Shown here one piece after another: positions 7,083 through 31,154 of a DNA stretch of 64,000 nt; position 1 is the first letter of the stretch; each line of letters starts with the position of its first letter. Source of the DNA: a virus (taxonomy: Duplodnaviria; Heunggongvirae; Uroviricota; Caudoviricetes); the IMG/VR virus record IMGVR_UViG_3300035208_002255, positions 64,001 through 128,000 of that record; one strand, given 5' to 3'. The translations under genes were made by a program, and so were the position numbers. A model generated the notes under the pieces. It did not search any database. It had not been told where the DNA came from and was given only the letters and a program-made list of their open reading frames with translations.

Positions 7083-7343
7083 CTAGTTTATAGAGTAGTT
7101 TTTCTGTTTAATGAAATTAGACATCTTCATCACTTCAGACCTAATTTTAAAAGGTAGGTCATCGATCTCTTTAAGTGTCATAGGTTTAAGTGACATATCA
7201 TCTTCAAAGATTGATACTACACCACAGTACGCACAAATAGATAAAGATCCAGGCTCTGGGGTGTAGTCAGATCCATCAGCAGTAGATGCTGCATCAAGTT
7301 TAGATCCGCAACCACAACAAACAGACTCTTTTGTTCTAGACAT
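7083..7343 (-). CDS. hypothetical zinc-ribbon protein
   Basis: CCGCG...CAYCG. Confidence 0.65.
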   Translation of the reverse strand: MSRTKESVCCGCGSKLDAASTADGSDYTPEPGSLSICAYCGVVSIFEDDMSLKPMTLKEIDDLPFKIRSEVMKMSNFIKQKNYSIN

Positions 7344-7968
7344 TGTTCACCTTGGTAAAGTGGTTTTTAAGTCTCAGCACTCCAACTTCGGTTTTCATAT
7401 CACCAACACCAAGAGCTTCATCCAGAGGAACTAAAATGCATTCTCCATTCCGCTCTTGGGGTGTTCCATCTTCGGATGGTTTACCAACAGGAATTCCGGT
7501 TACATCTACAGCATAGTAGAACAATCGTTCACCAGCCAAACCAACAGATCCCCAAACAGGCTCACCAAGTTTATAAATACTTGTAATTGGAGCATCAATT
7601 CCGACTTCTTCTTCAAGTTCTCGAATGGATGCATTGACAGGATCTTCATCACCATCAATTAGTCCAGCCGGAAGCTCCCAACCGCAACCAACAGCATTTG
7701 GAAAAGGCTTTCTTGCTGCAACGGCAATTCTTATACAACTACGCAGCCAAATCCTGGGATTGTTTTCCTCTGACAGATCGTAAGCGCAGATAACACACGC
7801 ATCCATACTCTTACGAGTAATGACATCGTGAGTAAATTCTTCAGAGATATCACCGTTTGGATATTCAAGCTTACACCTAAGATGTCTAATTTTTAGGAAA
7901 GGAGGCCCATCAACATCACCGATGTAATGAGTAATAACTTGAGGTGGTTTCTTTAAAATGCTAGACAT
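7336..7968 (-). CDS. Nudix hydrolase (ADP-ribose pyrophosphatase-like)
   Basis: Nudix box WELPAGLIDGDEDPVNASIRELEEEVG; likely start MSSILKK at 7968. Confidence 0.85.
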   Translation of the reverse strand: MSSILKKPPQVITHYIGDVDGPPFLKIRHLRCKLEYPNGDISEEFTHDVITRKSMDACVICAYDLSEENNPRIWLRSCIRIAVAARKPFPNAVGCGWELPAGLIDGDEDPVNASIRELEEEVGIDAPITSIYKLGEPVWGSVGLAGERLFYYAVDVTGIPVGKPSEDGTPQERNGECILVPLDEALGVGDMKTEVGVLRLKNHFTKVNNV

Positions 7969-8288
7969 AAAAATTTCCAGATAAAGAAAATAGCAACAAG
8001 TTGTAGTATCCACTGCAATCGCATTAAGATACCATGCTTCCATAAAACAAGCTGGCCGGACATAGTAAGTATCATAGAAAGCCTGTTAGATGACATTCCA
8101 CAACTCTCTAAGAGTTCTTCACTCTTTTTCATCTCCTCAACAATAAATGTAATTCTTTCAGAATTCATGTATTGAAGAAGACTTACACTTCTTATGAAGA
8201 ACGGAACAGGAATCAATGACTTAGTCAACTGATTTTGAGCCGCTATAACAAACTTAGCCTCTTCATGTGTTAGTTTTATTTGTTCCAA
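7953..8288 (-). CDS. hypothetical protein
   Basis: 111-aa ORF filling the gap between Nudix and ARH genes. Confidence 0.45.
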   Translation of the reverse strand: MEQIKLTHEEAKFVIAAQNQLTKSLIPVPFFIRSVSLLQYMNSERITFIVEEMKKSEELLESCGMSSNRLSMILTMSGQLVLWKHGILMRLQWILQLVAIFFIWKFLCLAF

Positions 8289-9243
8289 TTTTCAATAATC
8301 CCATTGTGTTGTTAATGAGTTTTTGCTTATTGTCGCCCAATGCATCTAACCATCTTGTAGGTATCGATTCGTATCCATGATACGCACCCAATAAAGCTCC
8401 AGCTACAGCCCCAACTGTATCTGCGTCATTTCCTCGATTAACTACTTTGACAAGACCTTCTTCAAAAGAATCATTTTGATACCAAGTAGCAATGGCACAC
8501 TTCAAAGTATCAATAACATAACCATCGTTTTCCCACATCTCCCATTCGTGAGTTGGAGCATCACTTATTGCTTCAATAACCCGAATAGCCCCGGTAACAG
8601 GTCGGACACTATCTCTGCTAAGACTTGATACAAGCTTGATTGTATGTACTAGTGCGTCCATTTTTGAAACACACTCGAATCCAAGCTTCAGGATGTTATT
8701 GACAGCAATACAGGAAAGAATACACTTTGGATCTGGGTGAGTATCTTCTGATAACTTTAAACTATCTATGATAAGTGATGTTTCATCGTTACGATGAACG
8801 ATAGCAGTTGGCATACACCTCATCAAAGATCCATTACCGGATGGATGGTGTCCGTTCGCCGCCCACAGCTGAACCGCTGGGTTGTAATCTTCACGAAGTT
8901 CATCCTTGGAAGAAATCTTTTCCCAAACATTTAGAACCTTATGAGTCCAATTACCAATGTCCTTTGGATTTGTTCGTTTCCACTCCAACCACTTATCAAC
9001 AATAGATGCTTGATTGTATTGACCATTCTCAAAATACATCTCTTGAATACCAATGGACATGATAGTGTCATCGGTAATATCTCCAGGATTCCATTTCAAA
9101 ACACCGCCACCAGTCATTTCCCTGATAAACTTATCAGGTTCCCGAGATGGAAGAAACTCTAATGGAGCACCCAACGCATCTCCCACAGCAGCACCAAGAA
9201 TGATCCCAAGTGCTGTACTTTCAGTTTTTGAATTACTCATCAT
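8263..9243 (-). CDS. ADP-ribosylglycohydrolase (DraG/ARH family)
   Basis: GAAVGDALGAPLEF, TDDT, GNGSLMRC, DADTVGAVAGALLGA. Confidence 0.93.
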   Translation of the reverse strand: MMSNSKTESTALGIILGAAVGDALGAPLEFLPSREPDKFIREMTGGGVLKWNPGDITDDTIMSIGIQEMYFENGQYNQASIVDKWLEWKRTNPKDIGNWTHKVLNVWEKISSKDELREDYNPAVQLWAANGHHPSGNGSLMRCMPTAIVHRNDETSLIIDSLKLSEDTHPDPKCILSCIAVNNILKLGFECVSKMDALVHTIKLVSSLSRDSVRPVTGAIRVIEAISDAPTHEWEMWENDGYVIDTLKCAIATWYQNDSFEEGLVKVVNRGNDADTVGAVAGALLGAYHGYESIPTRWLDALGDNKQKLINNTMGLLKIGTNKTNT

Positions 9244-10903
9244 TGAAATCCTCGAATAAGAAAGCTTTTTCGTAACCTGCTTCTTCCTCTGTAACTTTAC
9301 CAGAGGTAATCATAAGATCTAACATCTTGGCAATTTTACCTTTCATCTGTTCATAGGTACCAGACCGACTTGGAGCGGGTAAGCGTAGAACCAGATAAAG
9401 GGCTTGAGACAACGTAATGTTAGATGGTGGAGTACCAAGAAGTTTGTTAGCCCCAGGTCCAATGCCGTACAAGTCGGGACCAAACTCTACAACATTTAGA
9501 TAAAGCTCAAGAATCTTTTCCTTTGGTAAAGAACTCTCCAAAGCAACTGTTAAGATAGCTTCTTGAATTTTACGACCAAGCGTTCTCTTTCTAGATAGCC
9601 AAAGATTCTTTGCTAGCTGCATCGTGATAGTAGAACCACCACGGAAGAACTTACCAAGTCTCAAGTTATCCCTGATCGAATTCTCAATAGCCTGAGGAAT
9701 GATCCCTCTATGAGAAAAGAATCCGGGGTCTTCAGTTGTTGTAAGCGCCTTAACCATTGTATCAGATACCAATTCAAATGGTACCCATTCTAGAGACCCC
9801 GGTCCCGAGACTCTTTCAAACTTACCACCGGAATTGGGGTGATACGCAGTGTAAGCGAACTTACCACTCAAAGCTTTGATGAAGCTAGGTATAGGGCCAT
9901 CAATTGAACAATTGTTATGAAGCTTGAACTTCACCTGTGGTTGAGTTTCTAGAGAGAAACCTAAAGTACCTTTAAACTTCACTTGATCGATTGGCGGTGT
10001 TTTCAATTCATTAGGTAAAGCACGAAGCCAATCCGCACAATCTGCATCTTCAGCTGTAACGCGCCTCTCTGCAACGTTAAAGCCAATGTATACACCATTG
10101 ATCTTAACTGAATGGTTTGCTGTTTTTACATCTGCTAGAGCAAAAGCATTAACATCAACATTCTGTACAGTTAGCATATTCAAGTACAGCATTGGGTGAG
10201 AACCAAACACTGTATTAGCATCAATCTTAATGATGCCATTTGAAAACTTTACAGAAATACCCGTGCCACCAACTGACAAGTTAGTATCATGTTTAATGAG
10301 AGCATACTTAATAGAGATGTTGATGATATTATCAACAACACATTGCACTCCAGATACTGAGATGTCGCCAATACCATCCTTAGATGTTTTAGCTCTATCA
10401 AATGTGATTGTCTTAGTCTTACGATCCGCTGTAATATTCTCAAACGTTACAGTTCCATATTCAGTTGTTGCAACACCTGTTGGTGCAAACACTTTAAAAC
10501 CGTCAACGCCGGCATTGTTCAGTTGCAATACGGAATCATCTTTCTGTACTTTTAGAGATAGATTCTTAGCTACGATTCTGTACTTATCAACATCAGTACT
10601 AGAACTGTTAGCTTTCGTATCTGATTTTAGAGTTAAAGAAACACTTCCACCATCAGAAACAATTGTCTTTGCATTTCTACAAGCAATAGCTGATGTGATG
10701 TTTCCGTTGATATTACCACGATTGATAGTAATACCTTTTAGGTTGACGCAATCTAAGCTCTTCAAACTTACATAGTCAACGTGGACACCGGGCATCATTC
10801 CATTTACATATCTGACCAATACAGAAGGAAGTATTAGATATCCGATGACACCTAAAACAATAACACAACCCAATAGAATTAGAAGTTTTTTAGACTTACT
10901 CAT
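9233..10903 (-). CDS. Membrane-anchored peptidoglycan transglycosylase (GT51 domain)
   Basis: N-terminal TM; EDPGFFSHRG, GGSTITMQLAKN, RKIQE, ILELYLN motifs; likely start MSKSKK at 10903. Confidence 0.88.
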   Translation of the reverse strand: MSKSKKLLILLGCVIVLGVIGYLILPSVLVRYVNGMMPGVHVDYVSLKSLDCVNLKGITINRGNINGNITSAIACRNAKTIVSDGGSVSLTLKSDTKANSSSTDVDKYRIVAKNLSLKVQKDDSVLQLNNAGVDGFKVFAPTGVATTEYGTVTFENITADRKTKTITFDRAKTSKDGIGDISVSGVQCVVDNIINISIKYALIKHDTNLSVGGTGISVKFSNGIIKIDANTVFGSHPMLYLNMLTVQNVDVNAFALADVKTANHSVKINGVYIGFNVAERRVTAEDADCADWLRALPNELKTPPIDQVKFKGTLGFSLETQPQVKFKLHNNCSIDGPIPSFIKALSGKFAYTAYHPNSGGKFERVSGPGSLEWVPFELVSDTMVKALTTTEDPGFFSHRGIIPQAIENSIRDNLRLGKFFRGGSTITMQLAKNLWLSRKRTLGRKIQEAILTVALESSLPKEKILELYLNVVEFGPDLYGIGPGANKLLGTPPSNITLSQALYLVLRLPAPSRSGTYEQMKGKIAKMLDLMITSGKVTEEEAGYEKAFLFEDFNDE

Positions 10904-10940
10904 GCGGGCACCATGGTACCATAAAGTCGTACAAAAAGCA

Positions 10941-10962
10941 AGAGGAGCCTTTCGGCTCCTCT
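10941..10962 (-). terminator. Rho-independent terminator
   Basis: Minus strand AGAGGAGCC-GAAA-GGCTCCTCT then TGCTTTTT. Lies just downstream of the NAMPT stop. Confidence 0.7.
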
Positions 10963-10983
10963 CATGTTTCTGCGGTTTTTCTT

Positions 10984-13434
10984 TTACTTCAACTGCCAGC
11001 CGGGAGGCAGTGGCTCTTTCGGCCAAGCGTTCTCTCGGACCTCTTCCATCGTCAACATGTTAAAGACATCACCATTGAGAAAAACCTCTTGCATCACAGT
11101 ATCAGGGTGAACATCTTGACCTTTTTCAAGCTTCACCGTTTCATAAACAGCAAAACCAGCATCATTAATCTTACGAATAAGATCAAGACGACCACGCTTC
11201 GAGTTCTTCACCTGATCAGTAGCGGGCTGCTTGAAGACCTCAACCTCTTCGCCATTCACAATAACCCAGCTACACTTCATTGCAAAACGCTGTGTATCAC
11301 GATTATGTTGTTGAAGAAGAGCACCACCCATACCAAAAGTGATATTCTCAGTACTCCATCCAACTTCTTTTAGCGCCTCCAGGATCTCTTCAATACTATC
11401 AAGGTTCACACCATCACCTTGAATGACACGAACATATTTCAGAACCTTAAAACCCTTAGAATTCGTTGTAGTTCCGAATTTGTTACCAAGGATTTCTAGG
11501 ACTTTAAGAACTACTTCCTTTGGATCTCCCGAGTCAGGACGAACAACGAGAGTTGCTCCCGAATCAATCACCTTTTGCTTAAGAGTTCCACCCCAAATGT
11601 TCTCACATGCATTGAAGATGTCGTACGAATCAGAGACGCAAGCTAGGACCTTGCCATTACCACCGTACACCTCAAGCATGTTCTCATAAGCTTTCTCTTC
11701 ATTCTCACGGCCCCACGAAGTAATGGTGCTGTGTTCTGAATTACCACTTATAGCAACGAAATTATTCCTTCTAACAACTACCATTCCTGATGGAACCGTG
11801 ACGCAATATACTATTCCATTATATTCTATTGTACCTTTTTTAATTCCAAGGCCATTTCTTCCAGAAGCAGGACACACCATTACAGTATAAATAGTTTTTC
11901 TATTATCTCTTGGATCTTCATACTCTGATAATACAGATCTATGTCCAGATAAAACACCAACACACTGAACAACCGTTGCTGTGTCGTAATTGGTACTATG
12001 ATATAAAAGTGTATTATTTTTTATCTGTCCATCCCAATTAGTAAGTTCTTCAATTGCCTTTTTAGCCCAAGTGCTTGATATTTGTGTAATATCAATCCAA
12101 CTAAAATCCTTTACCATTAAGACATCATTTGGAACTTTTATCCAAAAATGGATTTTATCATTTGATTTGGATTCAAAATATTCGTAATTCAACTCTTTTA
12201 GAATCACTCTTAATCGTTCACATTTTCTTTTCTTTTTTAAGGAAAATCTAATTGGTTTACATCCGGTTTTTTCTCCAGTATATCTATCTTTTCTAGATAC
12301 GAAACTACCGTCAGCTTGAAAGGCTATACGTAAAGCGTCCAAAGGAGTAAATCTAGTAATTGGACCTACTCCTAATCCAGCTTGTGGAATTTCATTTCTT
12401 TGAGAGAACGAAATATCATTAGCTTGAAAAATTTCAAGCTCGTTAGTTGTAAGACTACGCCTTACCATTCTATGATTTGGAGTTACTACCAAATCAATTT
12501 TAGCTGTTTTTCCTTTAGTGGTAAAAGTAATCAAATTTCCACTATATGGTACATTATAAATGTTTTCAGGATATACAAATTCAATATTTCCCTCTTTTGT
12601 ATACTGAGCAACTTTTGTTTTTTCATCTAGGTCTTTAAATAAAACAAAACCATCTTCTGATAAAATTTCGGTTTCATCATCATAACAAGCGGGAATACTC
12701 CACGCCGACATTGGGCACTTGTACATTTCGTTAGCAAGAGCAACACCAACACCAGTATCCGATCCTCGGAAATTGATTAGGTGAGCACAGCCACCGATAG
12801 TCGCTGCTTCACGACAAGTTGCACCACGACCACCAAAATCATGAAGCTTAAACAGAACCTCTTCGGGTCCGCAATCCGAAGTTTCTGCAAGGTACTGTCC
12901 AATAAGCTTTCGAGCGTGATACGAAATCGTAGCTACATTTGTAGCATACCACATACGAACGAGCTGAGTTTCCAGCCACGAAGCAATCCAGAACAACTCA
13001 GGATCAGTGCTCTCAATACTGACGAGAATGTTGTGAGTAGGAACAACCGAACCTTCAGGGACAGCACGAATGCGTACAGGAAGCCTTCCGCCATAAACGT
13101 TCACAACTTTCATCCAACCATCATAGTTGAATGGCATTCCATGACCTTCCCAGAAAGCCTTAGCCTGCTCAACAATCTCTTTGGTAATGATAGGACCAGT
13201 AAAATACTCCTGGATCATATACATTAAACCAAAAACAACAGTCCTATCGAACTTGCCGCCACGGCTTTCGATGTACGAAAACATCTTGGTTGTACCCTTG
13301 GGATACTGGGGCCAGTGGCTCACTTTGTAGCTGTCTGCATCGACAAGTGGATTCTTCCACAGATTCATAGGAATCCTAATATTGTCAACACGATTACAAT
13401 TCATCTCAAATTCTGTAGTGCATTGATTTTCCAT
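10984..13434 (-). CDS. nadV: Nicotinamide phosphoribosyltransferase (intein-containing)
   Basis: DADSYKVSH, LHDFGGRG, SIPA|intein|SEHST, VVRPDSGDP, IQGDG, FGMGGALLQ; RBS AGGAG upstream of 13434. Confidence 0.93.
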   Translation of the reverse strand: MENQCTTEFEMNCNRVDNIRIPMNLWKNPLVDADSYKVSHWPQYPKGTTKMFSYIESRGGKFDRTVVFGLMYMIQEYFTGPIITKEIVEQAKAFWEGHGMPFNYDGWMKVVNVYGGRLPVRIRAVPEGSVVPTHNILVSIESTDPELFWIASWLETQLVRMWYATNVATISYHARKLIGQYLAETSDCGPEEVLFKLHDFGGRGATCREAATIGGCAHLINFRGSDTGVGVALANEMYKCPMSAWSIPACYDDETEILSEDGFVLFKDLDEKTKVAQYTKEGNIEFVYPENIYNVPYSGNLITFTTKGKTAKIDLVVTPNHRMVRRSLTTNELEIFQANDISFSQRNEIPQAGLGVGPITRFTPLDALRIAFQADGSFVSRKDRYTGEKTGCKPIRFSLKKKRKCERLRVILKELNYEYFESKSNDKIHFWIKVPNDVLMVKDFSWIDITQISSTWAKKAIEELTNWDGQIKNNTLLYHSTNYDTATVVQCVGVLSGHRSVLSEYEDPRDNRKTIYTVMVCPASGRNGLGIKKGTIEYNGIVYCVTVPSGMVVVRRNNFVAISGNSEHSTITSWGRENEEKAYENMLEVYGGNGKVLACVSDSYDIFNACENIWGGTLKQKVIDSGATLVVRPDSGDPKEVVLKVLEILGNKFGTTTNSKGFKVLKYVRVIQGDGVNLDSIEEILEALKEVGWSTENITFGMGGALLQQHNRDTQRFAMKCSWVIVNGEEVEVFKQPATDQVKNSKRGRLDLIRKINDAGFAVYETVKLEKGQDVHPDTVMQEVFLNGDVFNMLTMEEVRENAWPKEPLPPGWQLK
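11740..12687 (-). mobile_element. 316-aa intein with LAGLIDADG-type endonuclease in NAMPT
   Basis: Starts CYDDETEIL, has TPNH (block B), ADG and WDG endonuclease-like motifs, VYCVTVPSG (block F), ends GN before +1 Ser. Confidence 0.9.
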
Positions 13435-13539
13435 AATTCTCCTAATCTTTTATAGACTCTCTCTGAGTCCGCAGATCCATTACCTTTCGGTATGGTGAGT
13501 AATTACACTATCACATGTAACTACTCATTACTCGTCCCA

Positions 13540-13950
13540 TTAACGAGGAGCGGGCTTGGTCTTTGCTTCCAACGCTACTTGTGCTGCCTTCTCTGAAAGA
13601 CCATACACAAGGGTCTTCTGTTTATGAGCCTTGCGAACCCATGATGGCATCTCTACTTTACTCTTGATAGCAAGATCAAGAGCCGCCCTCATGACATCAG
13701 GAATGCTCCCGCGCATGTTGATCTCGATCACACCATCGCCATTCTTGAGACGATCCTCTGCGGTATTACGGCCGAAAGACTTCTTGAAGACTTCGGGTTC
13801 ATCTCCTCGATTCTGGGTGATGAATGCAAAAGATACGCGATGTGTCTGATCTGCATCATCCTTATCGGGACGAGTCATTGCAACAGTTCCAAATCTTGGA
13901 CTGTTTGGGCGATGAGGATTCTTAGAAACGAAATATCCAAACTTAGTCAT
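13540..13950 (-). CDS. hypothetical protein
   Basis: ORF, likely start MTKFG at 13950. Confidence 0.65.
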   Translation of the reverse strand: MTKFGYFVSKNPHRPNSPRFGTVAMTRPDKDDADQTHRVSFAFITQNRGDEPEVFKKSFGRNTAEDRLKNGDGVIEINMRGSIPDVMRAALDLAIKSKVEMPSWVRKAHKQKTLVYGLSEKAAQVALEAKTKPAPR

Positions 13951-14015
13951 TGAAATCTCAACTTTCTTCCCTAGTAGGAGGGTGCATCTTACAACACACC
14001 ATCCCAACTTTCAAC

Positions 14016-14156
14016 TTACTTCTTCTCTTCCGTGATGATACTGAGCTGACCGCAAGCGGCACCAGCATCAATCTCTGCCTGAGTCGCAAATGCAACTGCA
14101 TAATCGAAACCCGCATTTTCCAACTGATCACAAACATTTTTTGTATTGTTTTCCAT
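14016..14156 (-). CDS. 46-aa peptide carrying the RlmN C-terminal AACGQL motif
   Basis: Manual translation MENNTKNVCDQLENAGFDYAVAFATQAEIDAGAACGQLSIITEEKK; own RBS GAGGAG; below the ORF-track cutoff. Confidence 0.85.
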   Translation of the reverse strand: MENNTKNVCDQLENAGFDYAVAFATQAEIDAGAACGQLSIITEEKK

Positions 14157-14167
14157 GATACTTCTCC

Positions 14168-14959
14168 TCACACTAGGTTAACGCCCTCGATAGCACCTGC
14201 ACCGAGATTGTTTTCTTCAGAAACTGCATTGGGGTTAATTGGACTAACTTTGATGAAGAACTTTGAAGGATCGAAATTGGACTTCAACTTCTCAATATCA
14301 AAGTCAGCCATGTCTACCAAAGTCATATTGACAGTGGTCTTAAGATTAGAAGATGTTCGAATCTGACCAAGCTCAGCAATACTCATCTTCTTCTTAATTG
14401 GAATTAGATCGTCTCTGCGATCCTCATCCAATGAGTGCAGTGAAACCTGTAGAGTAATATTGTCCTTAATCCATGAGAAGTCCGAACCCTTCAATCCAAC
14501 AGTTGAGACATAATGATGAGTTCCAGGATAACGTTGCTCGATAAGTTCAATTGCTCGTTTAACCTCTTCAAGATTCAGGAAAGGTTCGCCCATGCGAGTA
14601 TAGTTGATCTTGTATTCTTTTGCATCAGTAAATTTCAGTTCCGGATGCTTAGAGAGAACAAACTCAACCTGTGCAACAATCTCTTCAGCCGTCAGCCTGC
14701 GCCACTTCGGAAGCTTACCAGCCATGCAAAATTTGCATCCGACTGGGCAGCCAGACATTGTAGATACGCCTATGATAAATCTCTCAGTTCTGTCTCCAAG
14801 ATCAGAATTATCAAGTTTGTTTTGCTTCCGACCAATAGCATCTTTGGTGTAGAAAGGCAAGAAGGTATCGGTAACTTCGATGGGAAAATCATCTTCCGTC
14901 TTGAGTGCATACACAACGCCATTGGCGAAACTTCGATTACAAATCTCTTTAAGAATCAT
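14168..14959 (-). CDS. RlmN/Cfr-like radical SAM enzyme, C-terminally truncated
   Basis: VSTMSGCPVGCKFC, RMGEPFLN, VSTVG, LQVSLHS motifs. Confidence 0.85.
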   Translation of the reverse strand: MILKEICNRSFANGVVYALKTEDDFPIEVTDTFLPFYTKDAIGRKQNKLDNSDLGDRTERFIIGVSTMSGCPVGCKFCMAGKLPKWRRLTAEEIVAQVEFVLSKHPELKFTDAKEYKINYTRMGEPFLNLEEVKRAIELIEQRYPGTHHYVSTVGLKGSDFSWIKDNITLQVSLHSLDEDRRDDLIPIKKKMSIAELGQIRTSSNLKTTVNMTLVDMADFDIEKLKSNFDPSKFFIKVSPINPNAVSEENNLGAGAIEGVNLV

Positions 14960-14977
14960 TGTAAAATCCTCCTTTCA

Positions 14978-16051
14978 TCAAAATTTTGAGCAAAAAAATC
15001 TTATGATGTGCCAATGGTCTTCGAAGAATTCATCTTCGTACTTATCCACATCAGAGAGGGGCATCCAACGAGCCTTCTCCATATCATCATCTCCCTTAAT
15101 CTTTGGAAGAGGACCCGAGCCAAGATCGAAACAGAATGCATGAGTGATTGTACGTCCGCGCAAAGAACGATTCGGATCGTCAAAGACATGAACTTCACGA
15201 ATGCGCTTTTTTATTTCGTCCTTCGGAAGACCAAGACGAGTTTCTTCTTTAAGTTCTCGCAAACATCCTGTAAGGATAGACTCATCATCTCGCAAGAATC
15301 CACCAGGAAGAGCTAGAAGACCTTTGCCCAACTCACCACGACGGCGGCCAACCAATACATGACCACTCTTGATGACAACAGCATCAGTAGTGACAAAGAT
15401 AGGTGGATAAGGTGAGTCACTCCATTGATCTTTGTATTCAAGAATATGTCTGAACTCGTTGTAAAGTCTCTGATACTGAGGAGTATTAGTATCAATTTCT
15501 TTTTTAAGAGTACTAAAGACAACTTCAGGAATAATATTCTTTAGAGTTAAGGTGTTCTTTCTAAAGAAATCATCTATAACACCTGTTTCAGTAACATTAA
15601 TCTTAAGTTGATTGATCACATCCACAAAATCCCACTGCGGGAACGTATCCTTATCGGAGCTTCGTCCATACACAGTGACATTATGATCATCCAAGTCAAC
15701 CATCTCATCCTCTCCAGCACTGAATCTCGGATTGGATGTACAGTCCACAGCGTTAAGCGCTGTCTGAACCGTAGCAAGCCACATGGTATTGTTGTAAAGG
15801 TAATCCCTTACTCGAACAAATGAAATGCGCTCAACAGAGCATGCAGGGAGGGACTCAGCTTCAAGACAACTGAGAATCATCTGCTCCCGCTCCTGAGCTG
15901 TCCAAGGATTCTTTGGAGACCTTGCCTGGCAAGCAGAGCCAATGATGATGACCACATGATCATTATTTTCCAACGCCAGCTTGATGGCGGCAAGGTGACC
16001 ATTGTGGATGGGCATGAAACGCCCATTGATTACGCCAATATTCTTTTTCAT
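14978..16051 (-). CDS. nadM: Bifunctional NMN adenylyltransferase / ADP-ribose pyrophosphatase (NadM-Nudix)
   Basis: GRFMPIHNGH, NPWTAQERE, Nudix ALPGGF...RELKEET, RGRTITH. Confidence 0.92.
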   Translation of the reverse strand: MKKNIGVINGRFMPIHNGHLAAIKLALENNDHVVIIIGSACQARSPKNPWTAQEREQMILSCLEAESLPACSVERISFVRVRDYLYNNTMWLATVQTALNAVDCTSNPRFSAGEDEMVDLDDHNVTVYGRSSDKDTFPQWDFVDVINQLKINVTETGVIDDFFRKNTLTLKNIIPEVVFSTLKKEIDTNTPQYQRLYNEFRHILEYKDQWSDSPYPPIFVTTDAVVIKSGHVLVGRRRGELGKGLLALPGGFLRDDESILTGCLRELKEETRLGLPKDEIKKRIREVHVFDDPNRSLRGRTITHAFCFDLGSGPLPKIKGDDDMEKARWMPLSDVDKYEDEFFEDHWHIIRFFCSKF

Positions 16052-16255
16052 AACTACTCTCTGTTGTTATTGTGACGGTCTCTACTGAGACATTGTCACG
16101 AGAAATTACAGGATGATGTTTAGAGTTCTCGACCCAAGAACATCTTCATGTAGTACACTTCTCTGATGAAGTATGCGTACTGTAACCCATATTCTTTCTC
16201 GCGTCAAGAACTTTTTCGAGTCTGTTTTTTTTTTTTTTGCTGCGTTTTCGGATAC

Positions 16256-16498
16256 TTATGCCAGAAGGTTGCACTTCCACTCACGCAAGCATCCGTCCCA
16301 GAACTTTTTGCGAACCAGTTTCTGGATCAGCTCTTTACCAAGAGAATTCTCCAAAGTCAAGAACGCAGATTGAAAGTTTCCGTTTTTATCCCTTGCACCA
16401 GCATGATTCATTGAATCCCAAGCACTTACAATAGCATCAATGAGTTTCTTGTGTCGGCGATAATAACTCTCTTCCTTCTTGGTAAGAGCGTAATCCAT
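16256..16498 (-). CDS. hypothetical protein
   Basis: 80-aa ORF, stop/start coupled with the upstream gene. Confidence 0.55.
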   Translation of the reverse strand: MDYALTKKEESYYRRHKKLIDAIVSAWDSMNHAGARDKNGNFQSAFLTLENSLGKELIQKLVRKKFWDGCLREWKCNLLA

Positions 16499-16821
16499 TA
16501 GAGACCTCTAGCTTCTTTGACGTCTTTAAGAAACGCAGCAACTATCAGATCATTGGAAATATATCTGTACTTACCAAGCTCCTGAACAGTTGTTGTGACA
16601 CCATTCCAATCGCCTTGCTGCTCAACGCGATCTTGGTAGAATTTTTCAAACAACCCAAGTTTACGTTCGTAATAACAACGCAATTCATTTGCTCTTAAAG
16701 TAGCTATTTTATCATTATAGATGTACTCTGTCAGCAGATATCTTGGTTGATGTGAAATATGAACTTCACCGCCAGAAACTGCAGCTTCCTTGTAAAGAGC
16801 TAGAACATGTTCTACTGTCAT
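16498..16821 (-). CDS. hypothetical protein
   Basis: 107-aa ORF, coupled at both ends. Confidence 0.6.
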   Translation of the reverse strand: MTVEHVLALYKEAAVSGGEVHISHQPRYLLTEYIYNDKIATLRANELRCYYERKLGLFEKFYQDRVEQQGDWNGVTTTVQELGKYRYISNDLIVAAFLKDVKEARGL

Positions 16822-17177
16822 TATTCCTCTACAGCCTTTACGTCTTCAGGGTAAACGATTTCAAATAAGTCAATGTTGATTGATCCCATTCTATCAAAAG
16901 TATCAGTATGAAATCGGACAACACAGCAAGGATATGATTCAGGCATTCTACAATCGGGAAGTCTTCGGAACTTTGTTCTATCTACAGGTTGAGATTCATC
17001 AAAATCAGGAGTCTCTTTGAAGTCAACGTCCGAGTGGTACGTTCCATCTTTAAATGGAAACTCAATACCAAGGATTTGTTCTACATGGTTGATATCATCA
17101 TCAGCCCATATATCAAGCATCTCTTGGTCTGATGTTACAAAGATTTTCATAACAAACCTAAAATCATGATTAGTCAT
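16821..17177 (-). CDS. hypothetical protein
   Basis: Likely start MTNHDF at 17177, overlapping the coaD stop. Confidence 0.6.
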   Translation of the reverse strand: MTNHDFRFVMKIFVTSDQEMLDIWADDDINHVEQILGIEFPFKDGTYHSDVDFKETPDFDESQPVDRTKFRRLPDCRMPESYPCCVVRFHTDTFDRMGSINIDLFEIVYPEDVKAVEE

Positions 17178-17649
17178 TTGCAAATACTTCGTGAAGTGCT
17201 TTTTGAATAACTTTAGGAACGTAAGGTGTGTAATCAGCACCAAGTTGTGCTAGTTGACGAACAACAGAAGATGATACGTGAGTTTGAGCACCTTGGGCTG
17301 GGAGAAATATAGTTTCCAAATCACCAAGACCTGAATTTACATGAGCCATACCAAACTCATATTCAAAATCAACACTGTTTCGAAGACCACGCACAACAAC
17401 TTTGATATCATTCTCAGCGCAATACTTAGCAAGTAACCCATTCACTTCCCTAACCTTGACATTCAAGGAAAGATCTTTAAAAGTTTCAATAATTTGAACA
17501 ACCCTTTGAGACTGGTGAAACAAAGGTTTCTTTGATGGATTTGTAGCCACCCCAATTGTTAAGTCGAATAACTTTGATGCACGGACTATAATATCAACAT
17601 GCCCCAATGTAAGAGGATCGAATGAACCAGTGTAAATTCCTTTAATCAT
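17170..17649 (-). CDS. coaD: Phosphopantetheine adenylyltransferase
   Basis: IYTGSFDPLTLGHVDII, NPSKKPLF, VRGLRNSVDFEYE, VSSSVVRQL. Confidence 0.92.
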   Translation of the reverse strand: MIKGIYTGSFDPLTLGHVDIIVRASKLFDLTIGVATNPSKKPLFHQSQRVVQIIETFKDLSLNVKVREVNGLLAKYCAENDIKVVVRGLRNSVDFEYEFGMAHVNSGLGDLETIFLPAQGAQTHVSSSVVRQLAQLGADYTPYVPKVIQKALHEVFAND

Positions 17650-17651
17650 TA

Positions 17652-18059
17652 TTAAACCTCCTCACAATAAGTACCTTTAGAAATGTACAATTTGTCATTG
17701 AACGTAAAATATACTTCAGATTTTACACCAGTACTTAAGAAGGAATTATAGATTGAATTTGCTTCACGTTGAACTTCATCAAAAGAAACACCAAGTTTAA
17801 CCTTAAGCTCAACTTTCGCGCTTGATAAAGGTTGAGGTTTTGAAAGATTTTCTGATATACAAGAACCAAGAACTTCAACTCCAGCAAGAGCACCTTCTTC
17901 AGTGAAGTCTAATAAAATTGTCCCATTAAAAGGAACAATCTTTCCTGGCCTTCGGAATTTAATATCTCCCCTTACCTCTAGGGTTCCAACTCTTTCTTGA
18001 GGATCAGCAAGGTATACATACAAAGCTTTAGCATCTGGATCGTAAGTATGTTTAATCAT
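17652..18059 (-). CDS. DUF2283-like domain protein
   Basis: YDPDAKALYVYL...LLDFTEEGALAGVEVL. Confidence 0.65.
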   Translation of the reverse strand: MIKHTYDPDAKALYVYLADPQERVGTLEVRGDIKFRRPGKIVPFNGTILLDFTEEGALAGVEVLGSCISENLSKPQPLSSAKVELKVKLGVSFDEVQREANSIYNSFLSTGVKSEVYFTFNDKLYISKGTYCEEV

Positions 18060-18378
18060 TGTTAATACCTGTATTGAAACTTGATTTCTTAAAGCTTGAC
18101 TTTTTCAAAGAACGTTTATTACGTTTTCGCTGTAGCATTGGTTGAGACTCTGCACAAACTTCCTCTAATTTAAGTTGTGCAATTTTACGACACGTATAGC
18201 ATCGACATTCTCTGTATTTTACTCCGTGCTTACCATTAAATACGGTATGAACAGACCATAATAAGCTATGTTGACTATGTTCAATCAGCCATTTATCATT
18301 AAGTTTTTCGGGTTCACTGAATTTCTTCACAACAAACTTGGGAACAGGCATTCTAAGATATTCCTTATTTCGAGACAA
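18052..18378 (-). CDS. hypothetical protein
   Basis: 108-aa ORF with CYTC motif, RBS AAGGA. Confidence 0.6.
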   Translation of the reverse strand: MSRNKEYLRMPVPKFVVKKFSEPEKLNDKWLIEHSQHSLLWSVHTVFNGKHGVKYRECRCYTCRKIAQLKLEEVCAESQPMLQRKRNKRSLKKSSFKKSSFNTGINND

Positions 18379-18393
18379 TTCGAATCAAGGAGT

Positions 18394-18422
18394 ATTATTG
18401 CACAACCCGAAAGTTAAGTCAA
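18394..18422 (-). promoter_or_regulatory. sigma70-like promoter
   Basis: TTGACT-17 nt-AATAAT on the minus strand upstream of 18378. Confidence 0.55.
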
Positions 18423-18430
18423 GAACTTTC

Positions 18431-18967
18431 TTATGTACCCAAATCTCTCGAAAAGTATGACCTCGGAACATTGAGAACAAGCCAGACATTATTCTTTGAA
18501 CGGAAGAATTTATGTCCTTCATTATGCATCTCAAGCGCACGAACTTTCAAGATTGCTGGCGTACCATGACGTGAACCAACATTAAGTGCGGTTTCCTTAT
18601 CTGCGCTGAGATGAACGTACAGCCTAGACATTGGGAGTAATCCATCTTTAAAGATGGCTCCCAATGATTTGGTTGCTGTACCATGCCATAAGAACTCTGG
18701 GGGCTCTAACTCTTCAAGTTCAACATCCACTTCAATGGAATGTCCTTGATTGGCTCGAATCTTCTTTCCATCTTCAGAATACGAGTATCGACCCTTGCTG
18801 TCGGTGCGCACAATCTCATTTAGATCATCTTTGGAGATTGGCATCTTCTCACATAGCTCGGCTACATTTGCCCATCCATGTTGATCTAAAACAATCCCAA
18901 TCTTCTTAGGATCATGCCTCAAAACAAGGGATAGGAACTTACTTTTTGTCGTCAGGTTGTTTGACAT
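18431..18967 (-). CDS. kptA: RNA 2'-phosphotransferase (Tpt1/KptA)
   Basis: SKFLSLVLRH, GWA, IRANQGHS, HGT, VHLS. Confidence 0.93.
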   Translation of the reverse strand: MSNNLTTKSKFLSLVLRHDPKKIGIVLDQHGWANVAELCEKMPISKDDLNEIVRTDSKGRYSYSEDGKKIRANQGHSIEVDVELEELEPPEFLWHGTATKSLGAIFKDGLLPMSRLYVHLSADKETALNVGSRHGTPAILKVRALEMHNEGHKFFRSKNNVWLVLNVPRSYFSRDLGT

Positions 18968-24968: not shown

Positions 24969-25136
24969 CTATTTTCCAATTTTGGATACATAAAAAAAAC
25001 CAACAGCACCACTGAGGCCTAATAATATGGAAAAATGTATCTGTCCAAAAAGAACATACAAAAGTGCATGTATTGGTATTGTGATGCTTAAAATTAAGAA
25101 GAAAAGAAGTGTTATCTTTATTACAGATGATTTCAT
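24969..25136 (-). CDS. small membrane protein
   Basis: Manual translation MKSSVIKITLLFFLILSITIPIHALLYVLFG...IGK (55 aa), ATGA overlap with PNKP stop. Confidence 0.55.
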   Translation of the reverse strand: MKSSVIKITLLFFLILSITIPIHALLYVLFGQIHFSILLGLSGAVGFFYVSKIGK

Positions 25137-26080
25137 TTGAAAAACTCCGCAGCATCACAGTACTGAAAACCACAACGCTCAGCAAAAGTTTTGTCGGTTT
25201 TCATATCCCCAACCATAATGCATTCTTTGGGATTGAGCTTATATCTCTCAATGAAATCAATACCCATTCCAGGCATTGGCTTTCTTAACCAAGATGTAAT
25301 TGGAGGAACATTAGAGTCATCATACCGATAGTCTATCGGTACTCCAAGATCGGTACATACGGAATCAAAACATGCAACACAATCTTTATGAGTTAGATCA
25401 CCTTTAGCAATACCACTTTGATTTGATGCGCCAAGCAAATGATAACCTTTAGCTTGCCAAGCTTTCAATACCTCAGCGCGGCCAGGTAGAATCCTTTGCT
25501 CAGAAACCTTTGTTGGATACTTTCCATTTCCTCCAACTGTCTCTCGAAGTGTTCCATCGAAGTCTAGAATAAGAGCCTTGTTCTTGTACTCCGGTCCCCA
25601 AACTCGAACGAAAGGAACCTTTGTAACACTAACAAATCCCTCTTCTTTCTTTGGTAACACAAGCTTGTTTCGCCAAGAGAAAAAGACGGAAGGAGGGAAA
25701 GTGTTAGGGTCGTTCTTGATAATAGGATCGTTGAACTCAGAAGGTTCAAGTACATGACCGTACCTCTGATACATTCTTCGACAAGCATTTACCTGACAAT
25801 CTTCCGAGGAAGTATTCACCCATAGCATTTCTACGGGCACATTGCCAGCGCTTTTTGCTGCATCAACGAAAACTTTGCGGTCCTCCAGAGTACAGAATAG
25901 ATTGTCTGAAATAACACTTTTGCCTTCAGCTAACGCTTCCAGCATCAGTGGAATAAGCTTTGTAATCTTACCACCAATAAGATCACGATTCAGTCGGACA
26001 AAATCTTTGTACTCAGGACTTTGAACATATGAACTCTTTCCGGCACCTGGCAACCCACCAACAAGAACGACCTTTTGCAT
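25133..26080 (-). CDS. Polynucleotide kinase / HAD phosphatase (PNKP-like)
   Basis: P-loop GGLPGAGKS; C-terminal LDFDGTL, SNQSGIA, RKPMPGM, MVGD. Confidence 0.85.
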   Translation of the reverse strand: MQKVVLVGGLPGAGKSSYVQSPEYKDFVRLNRDLIGGKITKLIPLMLEALAEGKSVISDNLFCTLEDRKVFVDAAKSAGNVPVEMLWVNTSSEDCQVNACRRMYQRYGHVLEPSEFNDPIIKNDPNTFPPSVFFSWRNKLVLPKKEEGFVSVTKVPFVRVWGPEYKNKALILDFDGTLRETVGGNGKYPTKVSEQRILPGRAEVLKAWQAKGYHLLGASNQSGIAKGDLTHKDCVACFDSVCTDLGVPIDYRYDDSNVPPITSWLRKPMPGMGIDFIERYKLNPKECIMVGDMKTDKTFAERCGFQYCDAAEFFK

Positions 26081-30101: not shown

Positions 30102-31154
30102 TTATACCTCAAACACTGGACAACTAAAGTCTCCAGATGCCCTACGGTCCAACAACCTTTGCCGCCATTTCTTAGTACCCTCTCCCATCCATACATCTCG
30201 AATGAAGTCCTGGTGCTCCAAGACCTTGATCCCGGCACCAAAATCAGAGTCCTCACAGAACGAACAAGAGTAGAACTCACCATCAACATTGATGTAAGAG
30301 CTGAACAACGTACTCTCACATGGCTCGGCAAGCATCTCAAACTTCGCACGCTGAGGATGATCCTCAACTGCCTTCAAGAACTTAGGCGCACTACAAGAAT
30401 CAAACCCGAGCGGTACCCCATTCTCAAGCGAGTACTTCACTAGCTCATTGAACTGAGCTTGACTAACAGGCTTGTGATTCAACCCACGACCCTTCTTCTT
30501 CAAACTAAGAATCACAATTGCATTCAATCCATGCAACCTGTCATCATCCTTGTAATCCTTGATCGTTTCCCAAACTTGCTCAAGAGTTTCCTGGGAAAGC
30601 ATCACATGGATGTTAGTCTGCTTGAATCCACGATCCGTAAGCTTCTTCACGGAATCGTAACACTTATTCTTGTTGGCGTACCTAGAAACCGCCACGGCTC
30701 CACATAGCTCAACAAGAGTGTCTGCTGTTGCATCCGTAATATCTGCAACCGTGATGTTCGGTACAACTCCCTTAGAACGAGCGTACCTCATCATGTCAAA
30801 CAAATCCGGATTGGATGTAGCCCCGGCATCAGCTCCAAAAGCAATCTGTGTCAAGAACGGAGTTCCTTGATACTCCATCTTGTCAAGGATTCCCTTGAAG
30901 GTCTCCAATGACATGTTGCGCCCGTTCTTGGTATTGCCCTTATAGCAGAACGGACAACCATTGTTACAAATGGTTGTTACTTCAATGTCTAGAATCTCCG
31001 GAAATGGAGCCATCGCTGGATCCTCGTGCTTCGTAGCTCCCCACCTGGCAAAGAAACCATTAACCTTGTTGAAGATGTAGTTGTACCCAGGACTCTGGAT
31101 AACCTTGAGATGCTTGCCATCAATTAGGTTCAATTCAGTCATTTTTGTTTCCAA
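30102..31154 (-). CDS. Radical SAM protein with SPASM/twitch-like C-terminus
   Basis: CNNGCPFC; PCESTLFSSYINVDGEFYSCSFC; terminal SCP. Confidence 0.9.
   Translation of the reverse strand: METKMTELNLIDGKHLKVIQSPGYNYIFNKVNGFFARWGATKHEDPAMAPFPEILDIEVTTICNNGCPFCYKGNTKNGRNMSLETFKGILDKMEYQGTPFLTQIAFGADAGATSNPDLFDMMRYARSKGVVPNITVADITDATADTLVELCGAVAVSRYANKNKCYDSVKKLTDRGFKQTNIHVMLSQETLEQVWETIKDYKDDDRLHGLNAIVILSLKKKGRGLNHKPVSQAQFNELVKYSLENGVPLGFDSCSAPKFLKAVEDHPQRAKFEMLAEPCESTLFSSYINVDGEFYSCSFCEDSDFGAGIKVLEHQDFIRDVWMGEGTKKWRQRLLDRRASGDFSCPVFEV

Follow-up and report, generated by a model that had tools for sequence, protein, structure and literature searches.

How could an enzyme of the RlmN type work if its catalytic cysteine is encoded by a separate gene and its second, resolving cysteine is missing? 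This question is raised by a pair of genes in a tailed phage (Caudoviricetes; IMG/VR record IMGVR_UViG_3300035208_002255), a 169-kb virus with inverted terminal repeats. The stretch analysed, called the window below, comprises 64,000 nt (positions 64,001 to 128,000 of the record), and unless stated otherwise coordinates are those of the window. In this work we focus on a 263-residue radical S-adenosylmethionine (SAM) protein, hereafter the core, and on the 46-residue peptide encoded directly behind it. With a probability of roughly 60%, we propose that they form a two-component class-A radical-SAM enzyme, in which the peptide is an exchangeable cysteine carrier and release does not depend on the cysteine known as C118 in RlmN. 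The features of the pair are the following:

14168 to 14959 including the stop, minus strand: gene of the 263-residue core (P0001), with a predicted RlmN/Cfr radical-SAM fold; open reading frame (ORF) from 14959 to 14171, TGA at 14168-14170
14768 to 14770, minus strand: GGC codon of Gly64, at the position of RlmN C118 and Cfr C105 according to the alignment to RlmN structures
14726 to 14749, minus strand: codons of the putative [4Fe-4S]/SAM cluster motif C71-x3-C75-x2-C78 (GCPVGCKFC), invariant in the core alignment
14157 to 14167, minus strand: intergenic spacer of 11 nt, from the core TGA to the peptide ATG
14016 to 14156 including the stop, minus strand: gene of the 46-residue acidic peptide (P0002); ATG at 14154-14156, TAA at 14016-14018
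14052 to 14054, minus strand: codon of peptide Cys35, the putative methyl carrier, equivalent to RlmN C355 and Cfr C338 in the peptide alignment

Both genes are on the minus strand in the ORF reading of the window, and the peptide ORF lies in a frame different from that of the core. A Shine-Dalgarno-like GAGGAG (14164-14169, minus strand) overlaps the core TGA and precedes the peptide ORF. The layout initially described from the letters, with a 263-residue core, a gap of 11 nt and an out-of-frame 46-residue ORF that has its own ribosome-binding site, is indeed what the minus strand contains. The cluster motif of the core occurs in the context IIGVSTMSGCPVGCKFC, and the C-terminal part of the peptide, ...ATQAEIDAGAACGQLSIITEEKK, reads ...EIDAGAACGQL and includes Cys35. 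Groundwater and landfill contigs from three studies (four public runs, of which one or two may be from the source sample) match the junction with 0 differences and 0 indels. A megablast of the locus gave no match among GenBank phages, and the public runs listed for the locus include no RNA run.

To which family does the core belong? Pfam assigns it to the generic Radical_SAM family alone (expectation value (E) 4e-10), and in NCBIfam RlmN ranks first (E 3e-22), with further RlmN and Cfr models behind it. The match to the RlmN model (TIGR00048) extends over positions 102-244 of the 355 and, at 79 bits, falls short of the cut-off of 290, and the Cfr models give at most 49 bits against cut-offs of 468-550 bits; the core does not reach the curated family cut-off for either enzyme. 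A search of PDB sequences returned only RlmN and Cfr. An AlphaFold2 model of the core, with a predicted local distance difference test (pLDDT) score of 82.7 and its last 20 residues disordered, gave in Foldseek 11 top matches that are all RlmN or Cfr (template-modelling score 0.55-0.71), the PDB entries being ordered RlmN 6fz6, 4pl1, 5hr6/7 and 3rfa, then Cfr 9p0p. Moreover, the core combines this fold with a CxxxCxxC motif in an RlmN-type context. Judged by profile matches and modelled structure, the core is thus an RlmN/Cfr-fold radical-SAM protein carrying the [4Fe-4S]/SAM-site motif.

Since the RlmN match covers just positions 102-244 of 355, both the N-terminal domain and the tail are absent from the core. 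The loop bearing the methyl-carrier cysteine is not in the core polypeptide and is present in trans on the 46-residue product. The absence of the N-terminal RNA-binding domain, suspected in the sequence-only reading, is borne out by the NCBIfam match, which begins at position 102; the 57 core residues ahead of the match form in the model a beta-hairpin before the cluster strand, and no extra domain.

In RlmN, C355 is methylated by one SAM, and the 5'-deoxyadenosyl radical generated from a second SAM activates the methyl group, which adds to the adenine (PMC5130265). Product formation needs C118, and the C118A variant, which served for crystallising the tRNA complex, yields no 2-methyladenosine (m2A) and leaves a covalent Cys355-CH2-adenine cross-link to the RNA (PMC5130265). 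In the phage core, the residue seven positions before the first cluster cysteine (position -7) is Gly64 (IIGVSTMSGC). It is aligned by HMMER with position 118 of the E. coli RlmN C118A structure, and it equals Cfr C105 by its offset to Cfr C112/C116/C119. Glycine is found there in 150 of 150 homologues from IMG/VR, a set of loci representing 25 lineages at 80% core identity, and in every close split-type representative with a readable cluster motif, so that the missing resolving cysteine noticed in the single sequence turns out to be a fixed trait. The invariant cysteines are C71, C75 and C78 only in the core alignments and C35 only in the peptide; core Cys7 and peptide Cys9 are not conserved, and no substitute conserved cysteine was found in either set of alignments. 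As the resolving cysteine is an invariant glycine and no other cysteine is conserved in core or peptide, a release of the RlmN type would not be available. Furthermore, because the glycine is invariant rather than just tolerated, a steric or conformational requirement at position -7 is suggested.

What, then, is the peptide? No named family exists for it in Pfam, PHROGs or NCBIfam, and neither the peptide alone nor its profile (18 sequences, 40 positions) matched RlmN among PDB sequences, a 40-position profile being too short. Because of this shortness in database searches, its homology was established through fused relatives, in which core and tail form a single protein. The peptide profile aligns by hhalign with their tails at 95.9% (E 6e-9) and at 97.9% (E 3e-13, gapless), and the peptide also shows a weak NCBIfam match to the last 35 positions of the Cfr models (E 0.07). 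On the strength of these two alignments, we consider that the peptide is the detached last strand and cysteine loop of an RlmN-like enzyme, and that Cys35 is the counterpart of RlmN C355 and Cfr C338. The peptide is very uniform, with 11 invariant positions, and the residues A33-A34-C35-G36 are invariant in 18 of 18 aligned peptides. It has no basic residue at the sites where canonical tails carry Arg or Lys; Ala, Thr or Glu are found instead. Median synonymous (pS) and nonsynonymous (pN) differences are 0.79 and 0.16, the ratio of nonsynonymous to synonymous change (dN/dS) is 0.073, and all 30 third codon positions are variable. This codon pattern indicates that the peptide gene is separately translated and under strong purifying selection, and the dN/dS value counters the possibility, foreseen at the outset, that the peptide might not be translated at all. 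No second peptide gene occurs elsewhere in the 169-kb genome.

Is the split peculiar to this phage? A search at E<=1e-10 retrieved 2025 homologues from a collection of 5.8 billion proteins, and the 120 of them that were listed measure 260-298 residues, nearly all 260-265. Relatives in IMG/VR contigs number 247 to 500. The peptide gene is present in all 25 IMG/VR lineages, directly adjacent to the core in 10 and behind other genes in 15; in a smaller IMG/VR set it stands directly behind the core in 17 of 21 loci and 1.1-1.4 kb downstream in the other four. Among the relatives the spacer varies from 8 to 18 nt, any of the three stops (TAA, TAG, TGA) is used, and the peptide frame relative to the core may be 0, +1 or +2. 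Recoding by programmed frameshift or readthrough is ruled out by these varying frames, stops and spacings together with the intervening genes.

The same division recurs in other phages, as 262 + 43 residues in a crAss-like Kehishuvirus from GenBank and as 274 + 40 residues in Moorella phage MTATph1. One more gene intervenes before the peptide gene in Pectobacterium and Yersinia Ounavirinae, and locus L028 has the peptide gene upstream, separated from the core by a homing-endonuclease gene. The partner in Vibrio phage D479 (L003:2303-2584) is a 93-residue protein made of two tandem peptide modules, each ending AGAACGQM. Natural fusions were also found, either peptide-core (P0126) or peptide-core-second radical SAM (P0139, 46 cluster members), and a 601-residue metagenomic protein (P0124), 69% identical to the core, has an intein directly after the CxxxCxxC motif. 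The search for conservation of the two-gene arrangement thus gave a clear answer: single fused ORFs were looked for among the close homologues, since they would have indicated recent decay, and all close homologues proved to be split.

In three runs, complex models of core and peptide each gave an interface score (ipSAE, interaction prediction score from aligned errors) of 0.75, while the highest of three controls was 0.27; 51 of 78 solved complexes, but also 2 of 108 mismatched pairs, attained this mark. At least 65% of the contacts agree between runs, and the pLDDT of the partner is at least 59. The confident predicted contacts join peptide residues 17-23 to core residues 234-240, the last strand, and the N-terminal helix of the peptide is laid on core helix 220-231. 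These models support docking of the peptide on the core where the RlmN tail sits. The pass may itself reflect likeness to solved RlmN structures, the pair being halves of an RlmN-like protein. In the modelled complex, which the sequence-only reading had called for, the loop bearing Cys35 is not confidently placed.

How could such a pair operate? In the mechanism that we propose, the peptide strand would pair with the last strand of the core, completing the barrel and tethering the flexible loop with Cys35. By analogy with RlmN and Cfr, Cys35 would be S-methylated by one SAM, a second SAM would be cleaved at the cluster, and the 5'-deoxyadenosyl radical would abstract a hydrogen from the S-methyl group. 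The resulting peptide-S-CH2 radical would attack an electron-poor ring carbon of the substrate, and the adduct would have to be released without a second cysteine, as must also happen in fused relatives that lack C118. The peptide would therein be an exchangeable cysteine carrier or co-substrate, able to leave the core. Such a carrier would explain why the peptide gene is always separate, mobile and fusable to either radical-SAM partner.

As to the fate of the adduct, we give slightly less than even odds to a recycling of the peptide after a different resolution step, which may involve the second radical-SAM enzyme encoded beside the peptide gene in many phages. A stable peptide-CH2-substrate conjugate as the product seems rather unlikely to us. 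Somewhat less likely again is the specific form of this idea, a natural radical-SAM 'peptide-nucleobase ligase' whose reaction would normally end in a stable peptide-S-CH2-adenine (or pyridine) conjugate on an RNA or on a nucleotide of the nicotinamide adenine dinucleotide (NAD)/ADP-ribose type. If it were true, the phage could mark, trap or disable a host molecule, such as an NAD-derived immune signal or a tRNA, and a trapped laboratory intermediate of RlmN would have been turned into a biological function.

Can the reaction be completed without C118? An exhaustive profile-free search, with 3280 representatives at E<=1e-3, revealed three kinds of short RlmN-like proteins without the N-terminal domain: the split glycine type to which the window core belongs; a fused type with cysteine at position -7 and the tail IGGGCGQLW; and a large fused type with I, V, M, N or T at this position and the tail IGSNCGQ. 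A CGQ tail together with I, V, M, N or T at position -7 was seen in 33 fused relatives, and it is with the tails of this no-C118 type that the phage peptide gives its best, gapless alignment (E 3e-13). According to genome bins, the hosts of the CLMCDAG-type clade, a branch of this type, are Peribacteria, Peregrinibacteria, Gracilibacteria, other Patescibacteria, Micrarchaeota, Woesearchaeota and Iainarchaeum.

In this clade the radical-SAM gene is the last of a cassette, preceded by genes for an isochorismatase-family hydrolase and a thioredoxin reductase (TrxR)-like flavoprotein without CxxC, and the stop and start codons often overlap. The cassette is found in 21 of 23 typed CLMCDAG-type loci of candidate phyla radiation (CPR) bacteria and DPANN archaea, and in three further metagenome contigs:

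Cassette loci: L244, L246-L248, L250-L252, L254-L257, L259-L264, L266-L268, L243; L114, L115, L194

Fusions of the radical-SAM protein with an isochorismatase occur in three protein clusters, and with a Nudix domain in one relative of the C118 type. Canonical RlmN is absent from four of five CPR/DPANN genomes with the fused clade and present in one. Because the no-C118 clade is fixed in very small genomes, a C118-independent completion of the reaction probably exists. The step from a missing C118 to a permanent cross-link is weakened by this clade and by the gene neighbours and fusions described here. The TrxR-like flavoprotein was considered as a donor of the resolving thiol and rejected, as it has no CxxC; for this reason it is, judging from its sequence, more likely an electron donor. 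Nor are the isochorismatase partners specifically PncA nicotinamidases, their best matches being a generic hydrolase, BiuH and RutB, with PncA at just E 1e-5 to 6e-7. We found no paper on this CPR/DPANN cassette.

How does the phage system compare with characterised enzymes? The best match in both sequence and structure is RlmN (C2-methyltransferase of 23S rRNA A2503 and tRNA A37; TIGR00048; 3RFA, 5HR7, 6FZ6), with which it shares the radical-SAM fold, the GCxxxCxFC context, the MGEP and SLHS motifs and an A-A-C-G-Q-L cysteine loop after the last barrel strand. Unlike RlmN, the phage core is about 120 residues shorter, without the N-terminal domain, has an insertion of about 25 residues before the cluster strand and stays far under the RlmN cut-off, with the cysteine loop on a separate product and the invariant glycine in place of C118; phage neighbourhoods with NAD salvage genes and a second radical-SAM gene also set it apart. 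Cfr (C8-methyltransferase of 23S rRNA A2503; TIGR04432; 9P0P), a class-A radical-SAM methylase that works by the RlmN mechanism with the two catalytic cysteines C338 and C105, shares with the phage system the weak match of its C-terminus to the peptide and differs from it in the same respects as RlmN. Close to A2503, Cfr has among others C105 and, in its tail, the basic or polar residues R327-F330 (PMC12458371). At these positions the phage system has Gly64 and a stretch of Ala, Thr, Gln and Glu.

The laboratory mutants C118A/S of RlmN have the same active-site make-up as the phage enzyme, with the carrier cysteine present and the resolving cysteine absent. In these mutants the whole enzyme is stuck on the RNA, whereas in the phage system only the 46-residue peptide could remain attached to the target, which would in principle leave the core free for further turnovers. 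The fused no-C118 clade (...GCPVxCLMCDAG..., ...IGSNCGQ) resembles the phage core in having no N-terminal domain, no cysteine at position -7 and an acidic character; it is similarly linked to isochorismatase and Nudix-type genes, and its tail aligns with the phage peptide without gaps. Unlike the phage system, it is cellular, its tail is fused and the residue at position -7 varies (I, V, M, N, T) instead of being glycine.

What could the substrate be? The pair lies in a dense cluster of NAD/ADP-ribose and RNA-end genes (7336-18967, minus strand), which also contains a gene for a DUF2283 protein. The neighbouring features are the following:

14978 to 16051, minus strand: bifunctional nicotinamide mononucleotide (NMN) adenylyltransferase-Nudix gene (NMNAT-Nudix), directly upstream of the core and codirectional (Pfam CTP_transf_like and NUDIX)
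10984 to 13434, minus strand: nicotinamide phosphoribosyltransferase (NAMPT) gene, 816 residues, two genes downstream (Pfam NAMPT_N, residues 30-122; NAPRTase, 566-756)
9233 to 11026, minus strand: gene of a 597-residue protein with a transglycosylase domain
8263 to 9243, minus strand: ADP-ribosylglycohydrolase gene
17170 to 17649, minus strand: gene of a CoaD-like cytidylyltransferase, upstream of NMNAT-Nudix
18431 to 18967, minus strand: gene of a Tpt1/KptA RNA 2'-phosphotransferase
25133 to 26080: weak ORF resembling polynucleotide kinase (PNK)

The order of transcription is NMNAT-Nudix, core, peptide, a 155-residue ORF and NAMPT, then the transglycosylase and the ADP-ribosylglycohydrolase. 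NAMPT adjoins the core in L007, L014, L020 and L025, and an NMNAT-Nudix-type gene does so in L007, L020, L025, L239, L240 and L241; one or both touch the core, in differing gene orders, in L007, L014, L020-22 and L025. The cores of L239, L240 and L241, which have the NMNAT-Nudix neighbour, are just 36-45% identical to the window core, and NAD-type neighbours as a whole recur across cores with 36-76% identity to it. L234-236 have Nudix genes, and L240 has an isochorismatase gene. Over the 25 IMG/VR lineages, NAMPT is found in four, NMNAT-Nudix in three and ADP-ribosylglycohydrolase in three, and the commonest companion is a second radical-SAM gene, distantly MoaA- or viperin-like, which stands between core and peptide in 12. 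MoaA and viperin act on nucleotides. A combination of NAMPT and NMNAT-type enzymes makes up the phage NAD+ reconstitution pathway known from vibriophage KVP40, to which the pair might be an added member, and we found no paper linking a radical-SAM enzyme to this pathway. The window core and peptide are acidic (pI, the isoelectric point, 5.9; net charges -3 and -5), and fused relatives with the resolving cysteine and a longer N-terminus (P0243, P0270, P0265) have a pI of 9.1-9.8; this acidity and the lack of basic residues in the peptide are weak further points in favour of a nucleotide-type substrate. For P0187, P0205 and P0223 the gene context was too short to be informative or lacked annotation.

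Taken as genomic context, the neighbours and fusions (NMNAT-Nudix, NAMPT, isochorismatase, Nudix) speak for tRNA or rRNA no more strongly than for a substrate of the NAD or nucleotide kind. For a methylation of 23S rRNA A2503 or tRNA A37 at C2 or C8, this context offers no direct support. Because of the phage neighbour links and the fusions in the cellular clade, we favour adenine or an NAD-type nucleotide (NAD+, ADP-ribose or a derivative) as the substrate, tentatively and at a little under even odds; a tRNA or rRNA substrate appears doubtful and clearly the lesser of the two possibilities.

Two further observations concern the genes between the pair and the transglycosylase. The NAMPT protein contains an insert of about 300 residues that starts with Cys (CYDDETEIL...) and ends ...AISGN followed by Ser, and this insert is intein-like, with a homing-endonuclease-like middle. 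The 155-residue ORF between peptide and NAMPT (13540-14007, minus strand; 135 residues from its ATG) has no match in Pfam, PHROGs or NCBIfam and is not kept beside the system in relatives.

Several points weigh against the exchangeable-carrier enzyme and its NAD-type substrate. Fold, homology, conservation and predicted docking come from computational tools, whereas every chemical step is carried over from RlmN and Cfr. The complex model is confident for peptide residues 4-24 and 28 only, and the cysteine loop is not placed near the cluster. The duplicated peptide is seen in phage D479 only, and none of the 150 IMG/VR loci is multi-copy. The association with NAD genes is a minority pattern, most lineages having the pair without NAMPT or NMNAT-Nudix; several of the NAD-linked lineages are the nearest relatives of the window phage and count as only partly independent cases, and in large phages accessory genes are clustered in any event. 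A specific likeness to PncA is not seen in the isochorismatase domains. Other copies of the pair stand in RNA-repair contexts, and here the Tpt1 gene is 3.5 kb away. No second radical-SAM gene lies beside the pair in this genome, a homologue being about 70 kb away. Finally, the median pI of the core over the family is 8.2, mildly basic, which makes the charge argument local to the window.

The alternative that survives best, which we nevertheless regard as unlikely, is an ordinary RlmN-type RNA methyltransferase that is merely split, with the peptide as a permanent subunit, another base or a host thiol in place of C118, and catalytic formation of m2A (or 8-methyladenosine, m8A) in tRNA or rRNA; it could, for instance, tune translation or shield tRNA from anticodon nucleases. 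No characterised family is closer in sequence and fold than RlmN and Cfr, and the predicted docking site of the peptide is that of the RlmN tail, but the N-terminal RNA-binding domain is absent, and Ala, Thr or Glu stand where canonical tails have basic residues. The Tpt1 and PNK-like genes of the window and the mildly basic pI of the core family-wide would agree with an RNA substrate, although no tRNA gene was found in the window. Judging from the fused no-C118 relatives, an adduct may be released without C118; in RlmN, however, C118 is required for the product, C118A giving the trapped RNA cross-link and no m2A (PMC5130265), and the phage glycine is invariant, not merely tolerated. Moreover, an ordinary split enzyme leaves unexplained why the tail gene is separate in every lineage, and why it moves and fuses.

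A less probable alternative, and a quite unlikely one, is that the peptide itself is the substrate or product, in the manner of ribosomally synthesised and post-translationally modified peptides (RiPPs): the core, with or without the second radical-SAM enzyme, would modify Cys35 or its neighbours, and the modified peptide would be active. A small separate gene beside one or two radical-SAM genes is what such systems would show, and the second radical-SAM gene between core and peptide in 12 of 25 lineages, its weak matches, which include peptide-maturase families, and the tandem two-copy peptide of Vibrio phage D479 could be read in the same way. Yet the peptide clearly derives its homology from the catalytic tail of the enzyme itself, its alignment to the fused relatives being gapless, and it is predicted to complete the core sheet as a subunit. 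It has no leader/core architecture and no cleavage motif, no protease or exporter/transporter gene stands beside it in the window, and its uniformity, with 11 invariant positions, also speaks against a RiPP.

Finally, a recent decay or assembly error of a single rlmN-like gene, or a recoded read-through gene, has a negligible probability and is already refuted, for although in the window alone the homology resumes out of frame behind a stop, as after a frameshift, all 25 lineages have the split, with differing spacers, stops and frames and often with genes between, the 120 homologues listed of 2025 have nearly all the split length of 260-265 residues (260-298 overall), the peptide ORF has a dN/dS of 0.07, the junction is identical in four runs from three studies, and no continuous single ORF was found among the split glycine type.

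Why would a two-component enzyme with a carrier peptide matter? To our knowledge, RlmN and Cfr are the only class-A radical-SAM methylases characterised so far, and their two-cysteine mechanism is considered defining. The split system is a very widespread natural version of this class, with the putative carrier cysteine on a free peptide of 40-50 residues and the second cysteine never present, and we found no paper on a split or phage RlmN-like enzyme. Either the covalent intermediate is resolved in a new way, or a covalent peptide adduct is the product, and both would be new enzymology. The links to NMNAT-Nudix, NAMPT and isochorismatase, together with the CPR/DPANN cassette, suggest an unrecognised radical modification of NAD or nucleotide-type molecules, which may bear on the contest between phages and NAD-depleting bacterial immunity. 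Phage isolates with the split system have culturable hosts, such as Bacteroides, Pectobacterium, Yersinia and Vibrio.

Some observations on other radical-SAM genes can be added. The phage has four further ones, at 30102-31154 (minus strand) in the window, which belongs to phrog_7293, and at C1:148434-149156, 150780-151673 and 158240-159235 (plus strand). The 240-residue protein at 148.4 kb is 30% identical to the second radical-SAM protein of the split system in crAss-like phages, and the two larger ones have Cys-rich C-terminal parts. In a large crAss-like lineage (L070:9522-9968 and about 50 similar loci), a 148-residue protein without a Pfam or NCBIfam match is encoded between the second radical-SAM gene and the peptide gene. 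The 296-332-residue type of second radical-SAM protein is preceded by a protein of 85-211 residues with a Gly/Cys-rich C-terminus ending in Cys (...DPCGRGG...C). This small protein, absent from the window, is encoded at L112:8775-9086, L047:8820-9272, L130:4023-4658 and L028:4666-4923, and downstream of the core in L018 and L011; it may be a further substrate or carrier of the second radical-SAM enzyme.

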